A stretch of 64,000 nt of DNA from Haplodiscus bocki (lineage: Eukaryota), in the NCBI GenBank assembly GCA_965655095.1, contig CBFHFQ010000241.1:1-64000 (forward strand), in the 5' to 3' direction. Shown piece after piece: positions 2,659 to 6,532 of this stretch. Under the pieces are notes generated by a model. The model made no database searches. It was not told the DNA's origin and saw only the letters and a list, made by a program, of their open reading frames with translations. Position numbers and translations under genes: made by a program. The stretch's first letter is position 1. Each line of letters begins with the position of its first letter.

Positions 2659-2749
2659 TTACCTCTTTTTTATCATTTTATTTTTAGTTTCTATCAAGTC
2701 TTGATTAACTTGATATAATAAGTATAACACTTAATTTTTACTATGTAAA
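2659..2749 (-). promoter_or_regulatory. Early cassette 1: TTTACA-17-TATACT promoter, 5' hairpin, minigene MIKKR*
   Basis: -35 at 2744-2749, TG-extended -10 at 2721-2726, TATCAAGT/ACTTGATA inverted repeat at 2692-2715. Confidence 0.85.
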
Positions 2750-2892
2750 GTATTTTTTACACTTTTTTTAATTTTTTTTAATTTTTCTAGCTTTGCTTTA
2801 AAATCATTTAGGCTTATTTTTTCGCTAGGTTCTGCTAGTATATCCGCTAATCTCTTAGCATTATTAGGCTTATCTGTTTTTACTGTTCCCAT
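2731..2892 (-). CDS. Possible 53-aa hypothetical protein (not in ORF track)
   Basis: MGTVKTDKPNNAKRLADILAEP...; GGGGT upstream of ATG. Confidence 0.45.
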   Translation of the reverse strand: MGTVKTDKPNNAKRLADILAEPSEKISLNDFKAKLEKLKKIKKSVKNTLHSKN

Positions 2893-2903
2893 GATATTAC
2901 CCC

Positions 2904-3272
2904 CTAAATTTTGCCTAGTTTCTTTTGTTCTTTGTAGGCTTTCAAGATTAATTTATCTATCATCTTTTCTAGCTGTGATAAGCTTTTGCACTTATATTTA
3001 TACTTATGTTTATTGGTATCGTTTGCACGATACATAGCAAGAGTAAATAAGTATGATTTTTTTACTACTCTATTTTTGTGACCAAGACTGTAAACAATCA
3101 TATGATAATATACATCTATATAAAAACTCACCAATCTAGCTAATCTTTTTAACTGTTTACTTTTTTTATCTTTGTCGTATAATTCCCCACTAACATTGAA
3201 AAGCTTAAAAACTTTATCCGCCTTTTCTTGGTGTTTACCTTTGCATATGAAATAACATTTTTTTAGTTTCAT
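2904..3272 (-). CDS. Paralog family A small protein
   Basis: GKHQEKA N-motif and D.LILKAY.EQ.KLG.I C-motif. Confidence 0.85.
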   Translation of the reverse strand: MKLKKCYFICKGKHQEKADKVFKLFNVSGELYDKDKKSKQLKRLARLVSFYIDVYYHMIVYSLGHKNRVVKKSYLFTLAMYRANDTNKHKYKYKCKSLSQLEKMIDKLILKAYKEQKKLGKI

Positions 3273-3284
3273 GTTATATACTCC

Positions 3285-3371
3285 CTATTTTTTTTTTTTT
3301 AATTTCTTATTTTTTTGTTCCTTAAAAGCTTTTAAAACAATCTTATTATAATAAGATTGTTTTAAGTCCAT
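3285..3371 (-). pseudogene. Collapsed mini-paralog of family A (28 aa) containing a 34-bp perfect palindrome
   Basis: MDLKQSYYN-KIVLKAFKEQ fuses the family N- and C-termini; palindrome at 3332-3365. Confidence 0.65.
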
Positions 3372-3378
3372 GTTTATG

Positions 3379-3762
3379 TTATATACTTCCTAGTTTCTTT
3401 TGTTCCTCATAAGCTTTAAGGACTAAATTGTCTACCATCTGTTCCAAGTCTAATAAGTCTTTGAAATGATATCTATCTTTTTCAGAATAATAGCTATTAG
3501 CGTATAGCAAGGCTGTATCAAATATATTACCCTCATCTATCATATCACTTATTAATCCAATTTTTTGAACGGCGATATAGTAACAAACATCACCATATAA
3601 CACCATCAATCTAGCTAGCTTGAGTAAATTTTCGCCTTTGTAATATTCGCCTTTACTATCTTTGTAAAATTTGCCGTGTATTGTTATCAGTTTAAAAACT
3701 TCTAAAGCCTTTTCTTGGTGTTTACCGTTTCTGTGGTAGTATGTATTTTCTAATCCATTCAT
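3379..3762 (-). CDS. Paralog family A small protein
   Basis: YYHRNGKHQEKA...LVLKAYEEQKKLGSI. Confidence 0.85.
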   Translation of the reverse strand: MNGLENTYYHRNGKHQEKALEVFKLITIHGKFYKDSKGEYYKGENLLKLARLMVLYGDVCYYIAVQKIGLISDMIDEGNIFDTALLYANSYYSEKDRYHFKDLLDLEQMVDNLVLKAYEEQKKLGSI

Positions 3763-3784
3763 TTTATTTTTACCTCTTTTGTTT

Positions 3785-3866
3785 TTATCGTTTTATCATT
3801 TTAGTTTGTATCAAGTCTTAATCAACTTGATAATATAATAATAACATTTAATTTTTATATTGTAAA
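3785..3866 (-). promoter_or_regulatory. Early cassette 2: promoter + hairpin + minigene MIKR*
   Basis: TTTACA-17-TATTAT (TG-extended); hairpin 3809-3832. Confidence 0.8.
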
Positions 3867-3893
3867 GTATATTTTTAAATTTTTTTAAATTTT

Positions 3894-4160
3894 TTATATT
3901 TTTTCTATTTGTTCCTTGTATGCTTTTAAAATTATTTCCTCTAATTTCTTTTCCATAGCTATACCACGCTTTTTATAGACATAACTATCACAATAACAGT
4001 CGTGGTAAAAAATCCAATGTTTGCGGAATTTTTCTAAATATCTGTTTGTTGTATAGCTATTGACACAAGGTTGACCAAGTGATGGAATTAAGTCTAATAG
4101 CATGTTAGCCTTGTATTGATATTTAGCATTTCTATTATAGTATGAAAATTTAAGTCCCAT
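3894..4160 (-). CDS. Paralog family A small protein
   Basis: SYYNRNAKYQYKA...IILKAYKEQ. Confidence 0.85.
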   Translation of the reverse strand: MGLKFSYYNRNAKYQYKANMLLDLIPSLGQPCVNSYTTNRYLEKFRKHWIFYHDCYCDSYVYKKRGIAMEKKLEEIILKAYKEQIEKI

Positions 4161-4162
4161 GT

Positions 4163-4438
4163 TTATATATTCCCTAGTTTTGTTTGTTCATTATAAGCCT
4201 TGAGAATTAAGGCGTCTAATTCCTTTTCGTTCGACAAAGCATGATTTTTATTATACTCATAACTACCAATATAAAAGTGTAGGTAAAAAAGCCATTGTCT
4301 GCGGAAGTCCTCTAAATGTTCGTTTGTTGTATCGTGATTGGCACAAGGCTCGTGAAGTGATGGAATTAAATCCAAAAGCATATTAGCTTTATCTTGATGT
4401 TTGCCGTTTCGGTTATAGTATGAATATTTCAGTCCCAT
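4163..4438 (-). CDS. Paralog family A small protein
   Basis: SYYNRNGKHQDKA...LILKAYNEQTKLGNI; close duplicate of 3894-4160. Confidence 0.85.
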   Translation of the reverse strand: MGLKYSYYNRNGKHQDKANMLLDLIPSLHEPCANHDTTNEHLEDFRRQWLFYLHFYIGSYEYNKNHALSNEKELDALILKAYNEQTKLGNI

Positions 4439-4440
4439 GT

Positions 4441-4777: not shown

Positions 4778-5179
4778 TTATATCTCCGTTTTTTGTTTTT
4801 CTAATATTTTTTTTATTTTTTTTATTAACTTATCACAGTTTTTAAATTTCTTAATTCCTTTAATAAAAGCACCACTATACTTAATTTTACCGCTACTATC
4901 AAAAGAGATAATTCCAGTATCTTTTTTAGAATATTTGTCGTATTTTTGATATTTAACTTGAAAATAAATGGTACATATCTTATCAGTAGTAATAGAATGA
5001 AAAAGAGTTATTTCTAAATCACACTCATTCACAAATTTATTTTTCATGAATTGCACTCTTTTTATCATTAAATCTTTTTGTTCCTTAACAAAATCGTCAT
5101 CTAAAGTTATAAATCCTATAAACTCTTGTTCATATTTTTCTATTTTTTCTATTGATTTTAATTTAATATTTTTGTTCAT
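4778..5179 (-). CDS. Hypothetical basic protein
   Basis: 133-aa ORF behind cassette 3 with RBS. Confidence 0.7.
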   Translation of the reverse strand: MNKNIKLKSIEKIEKYEQEFIGFITLDDDFVKEQKDLMIKRVQFMKNKFVNECDLEITLFHSITTDKICTIYFQVKYQKYDKYSKKDTGIISFDSSGKIKYSGAFIKGIKKFKNCDKLIKKIKKILEKQKTEI

Positions 5180-5184
5180 TTTAC

Positions 5185-5270
5185 CTATCTCCGTTTTATC
5201 ATTTTATGTTTTTATCAAGTCTTGATTAACTTGATAAAATAAGTATAACATCAATTTTTTATTATGTAAA
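5185..5270 (-). promoter_or_regulatory. Early cassette 3: promoter + hairpin + minigene MIKRR*
   Basis: -35 at 5265-5270, -10 at 5242-5247, hairpin ~5210-5239. Confidence 0.85.
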
Positions 5271-5301
5271 GTATATTTTTAAATTTTTTTATTTTTTTTA
5301 A

Positions 5302-5511
5302 TTAATCCATGTAAAAATATCTAAACAATTTATACATTAAATTTTTAAGGGAATTACTCTTTATCTTAGCAAAATTTAATGTTATAGAATATCCGTCGTC
5401 GACAAGTTCAACACATGTTGTTTTATAGCCGTTATCATTTAACATCTTTTTTATAACTACCATTAGTTTATTATTACTCATTTTATTATAATTCATGTTA
5501 TTATAATTCAT
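5302..5511 (-). CDS. Paralog family B small protein
   Basis: IKKML.DNGYKT...LF.YFYMD shared with 38862-39050. Confidence 0.8.
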   Translation of the reverse strand: MNYNNMNYNKMSNNKLMVVIKKMLNDNGYKTTCVELVDDGYSITLNFAKIKSNSLKNLMYKLFRYFYMD

Positions 5512-5523
5512 ATCATTTTATCC

Positions 5524-5612
5524 TTATCGTTTTAGTTTTATCATTTTAGTTTTTTATCAAGTCTTGATTAACTTGATAAAATAAGTATAACATGTATTTT
5601 TTATTATGTAAA
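5524..5612 (-). promoter_or_regulatory. Early cassette 4: promoter + hairpin + minigene MIKLKR*
   Basis: -35 at 5607-5612, -10 at 5584-5589. Confidence 0.85.
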
Positions 5613-5620
5613 GTATATTT

Positions 5621-5992
5621 TTAAATTTTTTTATATAGGTTGCCTAGTTCTTTTTGTTCGTCGTATGCTTTTAAAAGTAAGTCGTCCATGATAGACTCAA
5701 GTTTTGAAAGATTTTCACAGTTATAGTCAAGGTTACCTTTATAATTATTTCTCAAAAGGTTTTTCTTAGCCCAATATACAGCTTTTTTAAATTCGCATGT
5801 TATTGAAAAGAAATAAACCCAACCATAAAAACTTTTAAAATCCGCTAATTCTTTTAAACACTTATTTTTATCATCGTATTTAAAACTTTTACTATTTTTT
5901 GCAATTTGTCTAAAAAGTATTGAGGCTATTTCTTGGTGTTTGCCGTTATCTCTAATGTATTTATCTTTTGTATCCACTTCTATTATTTTCAT
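5621..5992 (-). CDS. Paralog family A small protein
   Basis: NGKHQEIA...DDLLLKAYDEQKELGNL. Confidence 0.85.
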   Translation of the reverse strand: MKIIEVDTKDKYIRDNGKHQEIASILFRQIAKNSKSFKYDDKNKCLKELADFKSFYGWVYFFSITCEFKKAVYWAKKNLLRNNYKGNLDYNCENLSKLESIMDDLLLKAYDEQKELGNLYKKI

Positions 5993-6010
5993 GATATTTA
6001 TCCTTATTTT

Positions 6011-6092
6011 TTATCGTTTTATCATTTTAGTTTTTATCAAGCCTTAATCGACTTGATAATAATAGTATAACATAGGTTTTTTATTATGTAAA
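6011..6092 (-). promoter_or_regulatory. Early cassette 5: promoter + hairpin + minigene MIKR*
   Basis: -35 at 6087-6092, -10 at 6064-6069; hairpin variant keeps pairing. Confidence 0.85.
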
Positions 6093-6110
6093 GTATAATT
6101 TTAAATTTTT

Positions 6111-6428
6111 TTAGATTTTTTTTAGCTTTCTTTGTTCGTCGTATGCTTTTAAAACTAAGTCGTCCATCATATCCTCAAGCTGTGAAAGACTTTCACAGTT
6201 ACCTTTATAAAGAGTATGTTGTCTACCAATCTTAACAGCTTCCTTAAAGCTATAACTATCATAGAAATAATAAATTACAATTCTATAAAATCTCCATGTT
6301 TTTTCTAATTCTTTTAAATACTTGCTTTTATTATCGTATTCATGGTGTATCCCATAATCTGTAATCTGTTTAAAAAGTTTGTTAGCTTTTTTCTGATAGT
6401 AGCCTTTTTCTGTGTAGTATATTCTCAT
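6111..6428 (-). CDS. Paralog family A small protein
   Basis: YYTEKGYYQKKA...DDLVLKAYDEQRKL. Confidence 0.85.
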   Translation of the reverse strand: MRIYYTEKGYYQKKANKLFKQITDYGIHHEYDNKSKYLKELEKTWRFYRIVIYYFYDSYSFKEAVKIGRQHTLYKGNCESLSQLEDMMDDLVLKAYDEQRKLKKI

Positions 6429-6448
6429 TTTATCATTTTATCCTTATT

Positions 6449-6532
6449 TTATCGTTTTAGTTTTATCATTTTATCACCAAGACTTGATTGACTTGATAAA
6501 ATAAGTATAACATGTATTTTTTATTATGTAAA
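6449..6532 (-). promoter_or_regulatory. Early cassette 6: promoter + variant hairpin + minigene MIKLKR*
   Basis: -35 at 6527-6532, -10 at 6504-6509. Confidence 0.8.

Follow-up and report, generated by a model that had tools for sequence, protein, structure and literature searches.

Repeated promoter and hairpin cassettes, a locally expanded gene family and a predicted hammerhead ribozyme in a small siphophage genome

Introduction

What would lead a small phage to carry the same promoter and the same predicted RNA hairpin in front of one small gene after another, and how did such an array arise? The question is raised by the 64,000-nt stretch studied here (the window; Haplodiscus bocki assembly GCA_965655095.1, contig CBFHFQ010000241.1, positions 1 to 64,000), in which an original prediction, made from the letters alone, had noticed six near-identical intergenic cassettes and a distant seventh, and had compared them with the promoter-stem-loop (PeSL) cassettes that mediate gene shuffling in T4-type phages. 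We find seven full cassettes per genome copy, small genes behind them that mostly belong to one locally expanded protein family, and a predicted type II hammerhead ribozyme between the last array gene and the gene of a single-stranded DNA-binding protein (ssb). On balance, we think it probable that the array consists of early, highly expressed units whose mRNAs are protected at their 5' ends and which are reassorted through both the cassettes and the gene ends, the ribozyme uncoupling the replication genes from them.

Results

All cassettes lie on the minus strand in two clusters (c1 to c6, and c7, which heads the second; Table 1), and each was located where it had been described, with -35 hexamers starting at 2749-6532 and at 40277. 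Their layout likewise agreed with the description in 7/7 copies: an A/T-rich upstream (UP) tract, TTTACA, a 17-nt spacer ending in TGT (the TG extension), the -10, exactly 5 nt, a 24-nt inverted repeat at the expected +1, an A-rich leader of 33-46 nt and a ribosome-binding site (RBS). All seven thus present a sigma70-like promoter with an AT-rich upstream tract, ending in a Shine-Dalgarno sequence and a start codon. This geometry is constant, and the seventh base downstream of the -10 is an A in every cassette and in 10 of the 11 promoters of the cassette class. Transcription from sigma70 promoters usually starts at this base, so that the first nucleotide of the RNA would be paired, in a hairpin with an 8-bp stem and a 6-nt loop; 24-46 nt separate the hairpin from the start codon, and the RBS stays free. 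In the 64 kb we counted 17 matches to the promoter pattern, where shuffled sequence gave 0.17 on average, and 26 to the hairpin pattern, at 14 places with both strands taken together, where shuffled sequence gave 0.02.

To the seven copies, which the original prediction had counted correctly, we add an eighth hairpin without promoter, a promoter remnant, and four promoters of the same class without the hairpin (-35 at 11096, 37017, 38840 and 41675). Behind the promoter at 11096 stands a different, weak hairpin (11000-11066, minus strand; 6 bp, 11-nt loop, z 0.02). The cassettes are mutually 75-96% alike and share exact tracts of up to 47 nt, so that the copies are not independent; the 1.5-fold genome repeat of the window contributes no independent copies either. 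An assembly artefact was ruled out, as the cassettes are alike but not identical and orthologues of their cargo lie on two other contigs of ~42 kb. No known RNA family matched the hairpin at E<=1, the genome contigs held 0 exact matches to the cassette, and cultured phages gave only short A/T-rich matches. Repeated cassettes were seen in 0/4 cultured relatives in the DNA examined, and repeated 14-mers in none of the four closest relatives (two whole genomes, two stretches of 14-16 kb).

The predicted 5' hairpin of the transcript has a folding energy of -4.9 to -9.7 kcal/mol. Over the six distinct variants, 98.1% of cells are paired on the transcribed strand vs 83.3% on the other, and the transcribed-strand fold is the more stable in 8/8 hairpin copies. 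Of the five distinct substitutions present, four leave the transcribed-strand pairing intact (p 0.005 under a uniform model, 0.066 with transition bias); the changes of c5 (U-G to C-G, U-A to U-G) are as originally described. Identity is 95% and 88% in the stem arms, 78% in the spacer, 57% in the leader and 52% in the 5-nt discriminator, a pattern that fits a selected structure and also a binding site. With only 2-3 G-C pairs of 9 the stem is AU-rich, an A-tract rather than a U-tract follows it, and terminators were called in 0/6 cassettes scanned; a terminator stem of the PeSL type was thus not supported.

As a separate observation, a short motif (GTCC..GAGACA-like, with a 3-4-bp hairpin possible) recurs near +1 in the ssb promoters of four cultured relatives and may be a conserved ssb control element. 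Its homology to the cassette hairpin is not demonstrable, as the register differs. Fur and FNR boxes, compared as consensus sequences and by eye only, do not fit.

Seven of the 12 open reading frames (ORFs) of at least 50 aa between nrdB and the ribozyme, g1 to g7, form one protein family, conserved at both ends and variable in between, which the original prediction had overlooked together with the in-gene crossover and the ribozyme described below. The central motif YYDxYNNGxxN is best preserved in g3 and largely lost from the other six. These paralogues, diverged to 27-60% amino-acid identity, take up 5.5% of the 42-kb genome, and the two clusters hold three further paralogue pairs, one of which (65 and 58 aa) belongs to a small phage family with just one copy in each of the cultured phages matched. 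In a midpoint-rooted tree that took in 32 of ~140 database proteins, the seven paralogues and 11 close relatives fall on one side of a branch with support 98/94 and 21 other members on the opposite side. The family, which comprises 135 clusters at 50% identity, is single-copy in 6/6 other loci (two cultured large phages, four genome loci), and this, together with the tree, indicates that the array arose through local duplication. By a crude NG86 estimate dN/dS is 0.21-0.81, below 1 in 21/21 paralogue pairs; positive selection was accordingly not adopted, one window alone exceeding 1 (the middle of g4/g5, 1.7 over 32 codons, significance not assessed).

Pfam, PHROGs, NCBIfam, the ESM Atlas and fold searches returned no convincing name or match for the g1-g7 family, a result that leaves room for an anti-CRISPR or anti-defence role. 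Its fold model is confident and all-helical (pLDDT 87, 130 sequences) and had no Foldseek match at E<=0.001; the best Z of 5.8 (rmsd 3.5, 72 aligned) is ordinary for helical bundles, and this lack of structural matches does not establish a new fold. One family member stands behind a PeSL-type cassette in locus L005, so that the family is typical early cargo elsewhere too. This locus (L005:9936-20040, on a 330-kb contig of a Pseudobdellovibrionaceae metagenome-assembled genome) carries ~20 PeSL-type cassettes (TTGACC) before small ORFans and is probably a region of a large phage; the inverted repeat spans the -10 there, and two-sided changes occur in 3/11 pairs (9 copies folded).

Traces of gain, loss and exchange were found in the proteins. 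Related contigs of 42,550 and 42,665 bp carry relatives of array proteins: g3 and g4 are unchanged on two contigs, the clusters of g5, g6 and ORF152 have 2, 3 and 3 members, and those of g1, g7 and ORF197 a single member on one contig each, although the word filter may have missed some. The informative sites of g2 match P0002 in 50 cases, all before residue 90, and P0007 in 12, all after it, with one matching neither. Because P0007 and the P0002-like P0011 both lie on the 42,665-bp contig, the simplest account of g2 is that a deletion fused two neighbours. The crossover point is ~100 nt inside the gene, and the clearest crossover, as read from these alignments, is therefore within paralogue coding sequence and not in a cassette. 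Two deletion remnants, the 28-aa ORF and ORF53, also have their junctions within coding sequence; the first six residues of ORF53 are those of P0016, alone among ~140 family proteins. One junction did map to a cassette, as the orthologue P0143 diverges from ORF152 exactly where the latter enters the promoterless hairpin. At the level of proteins, one breakpoint of gain or loss thus fell at a cassette, and one crossover and two remnants lay inside genes. In 4/4 cultured relatives the genes for exonuclease, ssb, polymerase, VRR-NUC and SNF2 follow each other in this order without arrays of small ORFs (1.017.O and LP.1 have one small ORF each between polymerase and VRR-NUC); judged by gene order, each of the two cassette clusters breaks into an operon whose genes are contiguous in these four.

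The array ends at a type II hammerhead (RF02276) that matches the full model (1-66) at 53.5 bits against an Rfam gathering cut-off of 37 (E 2e-8). Its core is intact (CUGAnGA, GAAA, GUC site), stems I and III are looped and stem II is open, and a 4-bp pseudoknot between loop I and the tail is possible. The predicted cut follows nt 2225 and lies 74 nt upstream of the ssb start codon, and the product would start with a stem of 8 bp and a loop of 6 nt (-7.1 kcal/mol), the geometry of the cassette transcripts. As only one weak terminator-like site was called on the array strand (2333-2311), read-through into ssb is likely. Weak stems II are common among phage and prophage type II hammerheads, for which processing of phage transcripts has been proposed in the available text of PMC3088659.

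The window amounts to ~1.53 copies of one 41,859-bp genome, so that cassettes 1-6 recur at +41,859. Both copies are identical over the first 17,563 nt, followed by 172 mismatches and 8 gaps from the portal gene onward; the portal-to-capsid region (17564-22141 vs 59423-64000) is the only one that differs, with ~180 differences, suggesting two strains or a recombinant merged in one assembly. Comparison of 60 window proteins with PHROGs annotated terminase, portal, tail tube, tape measure, central fibre (J), family-B-like DNA polymerase, primase, NrdAB and SNF2 helicase, with no sheath or integrase match among the 60. By these annotations the 41.9-kb genome is of the siphophage type, as had been supposed. 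The closest cultured phages, the Pseudoalteromonas phages AL and PHS21, are distant (polymerase 46-47%, ssb 64-66%; terminase 57% for PHS21), and the host is presumably a gammaproteobacterium.

Elsewhere in the genome, holin-like and Rz-like spanin genes lie at 34160-35065, and none of the 60 scanned proteins was recognised as an endolysin. Two neighbouring tail-region ORFs with RCC1-like repeats (28431-29991, plus strand) are possibly one split receptor-binding gene. The second inserted cluster includes a Dam-like methyltransferase gene and a pyridoxal-phosphate-enzyme-like gene (PHROG 'threonine dehydratase') at 37307-38782 on the minus strand, possibly for DNA modification, and the protein encoded at 39723-40181 (minus strand) has a weak, sub-threshold match to T4 gp30.8 (PF06019, E 9e-4). 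Behind the primase gene, at 14257-14857, ~16 GTTACAA-type heptamer iterons in both orientations and a duplicated 90-nt block mark a likely replication origin. Two paralogous helix-turn-helix (HTH) genes sit before the primase gene, where relatives annotate one, with a long inverted repeat between them (11539-11578).

Table 1. Features of the array, its surroundings and related loci (window positions unless a locus is named).
Feature	Position	Strand	Description
c6	6429..6562	-	UP tract, -35 at 6532, -10, hairpin 6475-6498 (U-U mismatch), leader, RBS; directly 3' of nrdB
g1	6111..6428	-	105 aa; sole gene between c6 and c5; 1-member cluster, 1 contig
c5	5993..6122	-	-35 at 6092; hairpin 6035-6058, stablest variant
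g2	5621..5992	-	123 aa; mosaic, residues 1-89 like P0002, 91-123 like P0007
c4	5512..5642	-	-35 at 5612; hairpin 5555-5578; UP tract overlaps g2 end
69-aa ORFan	5302..5511	-	between c4 and c3; 56% identity to paralogue 38862-39050
c3	5180..5300	-	-35 at 5270; hairpin 5213-5236
133-aa ORFan	4778..5179	-	3' of c3
g3	4441..4770	-	109 aa
g4	4163..4438	-	91 aa
g5	3894..4160	-	88 aa; 79% DNA identity to g4
c2	3763..3896	-	-35 at 3866; hairpin 3809-3832
g6	3379..3762	-	127 aa
28-aa remnant	3285..3371	-	family N-terminus fused to family C-terminus (internal deletion)
g7	2904..3272	-	122 aa; final 29 aa identical to P0005, overall 67%
ORF53	2731..2892	-	53 aa; overlaps c1; probable deletion remnant
c1	2654..2779	-	-35 at 2749; hairpin 2692-2715; 85% identity to c7 over 154 nt
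Tandem paralogue pair	2257..2653	-	65 aa and 58 aa, 41% identity
Type II hammerhead	2185..2253	-	RF02276, Rfam 53.5 bits; between last array gene and ssb
ssb	1641..2150	-	Enc34/gp2.5-like ssDNA-binding protein gene; first core gene after array
DNA polymerase gene	41695-43485		3' of ssb, across genome junction
c7	40182..40307	-	-35 at 40277; hairpin 40220-40243; heads second cluster
ORF152 and ORF197	39103..40181	-	second-cluster paralogues (152 aa, 197 aa; 44% identity), downstream of c7 and of the hairpin that lacks a promoter
Half-cassette	39697..39744	-	hairpin (39721-39744) and leader, no promoter; upstream ORF enters hairpin, stops inside
Half-cassette	39051..39110	-	UP tract and -35 (39079-39084) joined to RBS; no -10, no hairpin
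62-aa ORF	38812..39050	-	ORF at 38862-39050, then hairpin-less same-class promoter (-35 at 38840)
Two Cro/C1-like HTH genes	11232..11859	+	paralogous candidate regulators, outside array; weak, sub-threshold Pfam matches
Array, second copy	44513..48421	-	identical (genome repeat, +41,859), no new cassettes
Relatives' ssb-promoter motif	L002:4324-4398, L001:22777-22860, L014:5824-5919, L015:7916-8000		see text

Discussion

In the reading that we favour, each cassette would act as a strong early promoter for the host sigma70, and its transcript would start with a base-paired first nucleotide, followed beyond the hairpin by an unstructured A-rich leader and the RBS. RppH requires unpaired 5' bases, and 5'-OH ends are poor RNase E substrates; the hairpin would most likely shield the 5' end of the mRNA from decay and so permit fast, high expression right after infection. 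In the accessible text of a review (PMC7509114), 5' stem-loops are listed as protective and 5'-monophosphates as destabilising. Promoter-plus-gene units would have been duplicated by unequal homologous recombination until one family had grown to seven diverging copies, the homology for expansion, contraction and chimera formation being offered by the cassettes and by the conserved paralogue ends. All cassette promoters point towards ssb and DNA polymerase, and the hammerhead would cleave read-through RNA, which would give the replication genes a single defined 5' end at any array length. The early promoter with 5' RNA hairpin, the location in a variable region and the accordion-like history, all proposed originally, are supported in this form.

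Several points weigh against this reading. Because the cassette copies are close kin, the strand bias of the hairpin comes from only five substitutions, and A-to-G changes are in any case favoured on this purine-rich strand. Among the aligned cassettes, two-sided changes occur in 0/9 hairpin pairs, so that the expected covariation was not seen and the selection on RNA structure originally proposed is weakly supported, by pairing kept in most substitutions but not by compensatory ones. The hairpin of cassette 6 does have the wobble pairing ascribed to it (two U-G pairs, one C-G); it also has a U-U mismatch that had gone unmentioned, and in one longer context it is not the predicted fold. Such a hairpin is missing from four of the class's 11 promoters, and the near-invariant stem sequence would be expected of a protein-binding site as well. 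Gain, loss and crossovers among the close relatives were read from proteins only. The hammerhead has an extra U after its CUGAUGA core (after A9) and a stem II of just 2 bp, and it was found in 0/15 loci of other phages and genomes, including the ssb junctions of four relatives.

The inverted repeat could instead be a regulator-binding site, either a DNA operator over the +1 or an RNA motif of the Aca type, through which a Cro-like HTH protein would silence all early units together. We regard this as unlikely yet as deserving serious attention, and it can coexist with the recombination history. Besides the stem sequence, a third ATCAAG-like half-site in the loop and the two HTH genes of the genome speak for it, and the repeat has a 7-mer in common with the GTTACAA iterons (14257-14857), as do 3% of shuffled hairpins. 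According to the available text of PMC13551039, the target of Aca1 is an inverted repeat of ~20 nt that immediately follows the transcription start site (TSS), and control of several adjacent operons is predicted for Aca proteins. From a double-stranded operator, however, one would not expect the wobble-type changes all to favour the transcribed strand; no HTH or ribbon-helix-helix gene was detected within the array, the HTH genes' own promoter region lacks the repeat, and the distance from hairpin to start codon leaves the RBS unobstructed. It is improbable, in our view, that the hairpin is a mere passenger, copied along with promoter and genes and homogenised by gene conversion while only promoter and RBS matter. 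The long exact tracts shared by the cassettes and the hairpin-less promoters, taken to function without it, would agree with this, as would the promoterless hairpin, of which the relative P0142 must, judging from its last codons, have a broken G-C pair. Yet the stems are better conserved than discriminator and leader in front of genes that have diverged to 27-60% identity, and the decaying copy is the one without promoter.

A classical PeSL, in which the stem-loop terminates or attenuates upstream transcription and crossovers between cassettes excise or import unrelated units via mini-circles, appears to us the least probable of these alternatives. Layout and variable-region location do resemble those of PeSLs (PMC2839356, as far as its accessible text goes), the half-cassettes recall degraded '1/2 PeSLs' (PMC4122927, likewise), and a family member lies behind a PeSL-type cassette in L005. 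Furthermore, g1 is a cassette-bounded unit present on the 41,888-bp contig only, and one junction (P0143 vs ORF152) falls at a cassette. Against this stand the AU-rich stem with its A-tract and its lack of terminator calls, the position of the stem-loop in the transcript and not over the promoter, and the cargo of mostly locally duplicated paralogues; with the best-mapped crossover inside a gene and the remnant junctions in coding sequence, crossover or import between cassettes is not supported as the main engine.

Several systems described in the accessible parts of the cited papers can be compared with the array. PeSLs of T4-type phages are likewise repeated intergenic units of ~100 bp with an AT-rich tract, a sigma70-like promoter, a stem-loop and a Shine-Dalgarno sequence (PMC2839356, PMC4122927), gathered in hyperplastic regions before ORFans and with degraded half copies, and the PST/T4 promoter consensus TTTACW-17-TAYWAT fits the cassette promoter. 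They differ in that their genomes are 160-250-kb myoviruses and not a 42-kb siphophage, that their stem-loop is G/C-rich, terminator-like and placed over or beside the promoter, before the start, whereas the AU-rich cassette repeat begins 5 nt after the -10 and would lie at and beyond the predicted +1, and that here the cargo is largely one expanded family, crossovers also occur inside genes and a ribozyme stands at the end. Since a terminator-type stem and a T4-like genome are both lacking, the cassettes are set apart from PeSL membership: the array works like a PeSL region, but PeSL identity is not shown. By their titles and the starts of their abstracts, the seven papers found to name PeSLs concern large phages, with one jumbo-phage review and one lipopolysaccharide review.

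The segmental amplification of T4 dmd-tifA is also reminiscent, as recombination there makes tandem copies of an early promoter and gene that are later subject to deletions (PMC9391042, which in its accessible text also cites the poxvirus K3L accordion). Those copies are transient and near-identical with borders of 6-10-bp microhomology, whereas the copies described here are old, diverged, kept in several genomes and re-shuffled. With phage type II hammerheads (PMC3088659) ours has in common the family, a weak open stem II, a pseudoknot between loop I and the 3' tail, and a place between genes of a polycistronic phage transcript; that paper proposed that such transcripts are processed into shorter mRNAs. 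Unlike the cases described in that source, ours is a single copy standing where a multi-promoter accessory array gives way to ssb-polymerase, and the U inserted after A9 is absent from the descriptions in its available text. The acr-aca operons (PMC13551039) combine a strong early promoter, a ~20-nt inverted repeat after the TSS and neighbouring small-gene operons with one motif; correspondingly, the cassettes have their 24-nt repeat from the predicted +1. In contrast to acr-aca, which has a DNA operator and an RNA motif in the 5' UTR, we found no separate operator over the cassette promoter. A co-encoded regulator, Aca-like or other, was not detected in the array, where remote regulator folds could escape, the two Cro-like genes being ~4.7 kb away; no known Acr or anti-defence family was seen among the cargo. 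A conserved early regulatory motif marks anti-defence genes in archaeal viruses, according to the accessible text of PMC11065993, and from position and analogy (PMC9391042, PMC11065993, PMC13551039) the array proteins may have an anti-defence or host-takeover role.

A bolder idea, doubtful and a shade less credible to us than the regulator site, is that early mRNAs of the phage are given a standard 5' end, a hairpin of 8 bp and 6 nt, made either by a cassette start or by the hammerhead cut, the ribozyme insulating ssb and polymerase from a recombining library of effector paralogues. Such a library would comprise binders for host takeover or anti-defence, conserved at their ends, variable in the middle and reassorted by intragenic crossover.

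Conclusions

Repeated promoter cassettes as recombination substrates are known from large T4-like phages; we found no report of a similar array in small siphophages, or of the present combination, in a literature search that did not cover most subscription journals and supplements. Under the reading of protected, reassorted early units that we prefer, the array would preserve the natural history of one uncharacterised family whose copies were first amplified and then diverged and were re-shuffled. The conserved early cassette flags candidate host-takeover or anti-defence genes, and the seven diverged copies form a panel in which new activities of this kind may be found. Finally, the hammerhead at the boundary between array and core would offer a concrete purpose for a phage ribozyme, a question left open in the accessible text of PMC3088659: to hold the expression of the replication genes apart from an array that may grow and shrink beside them.

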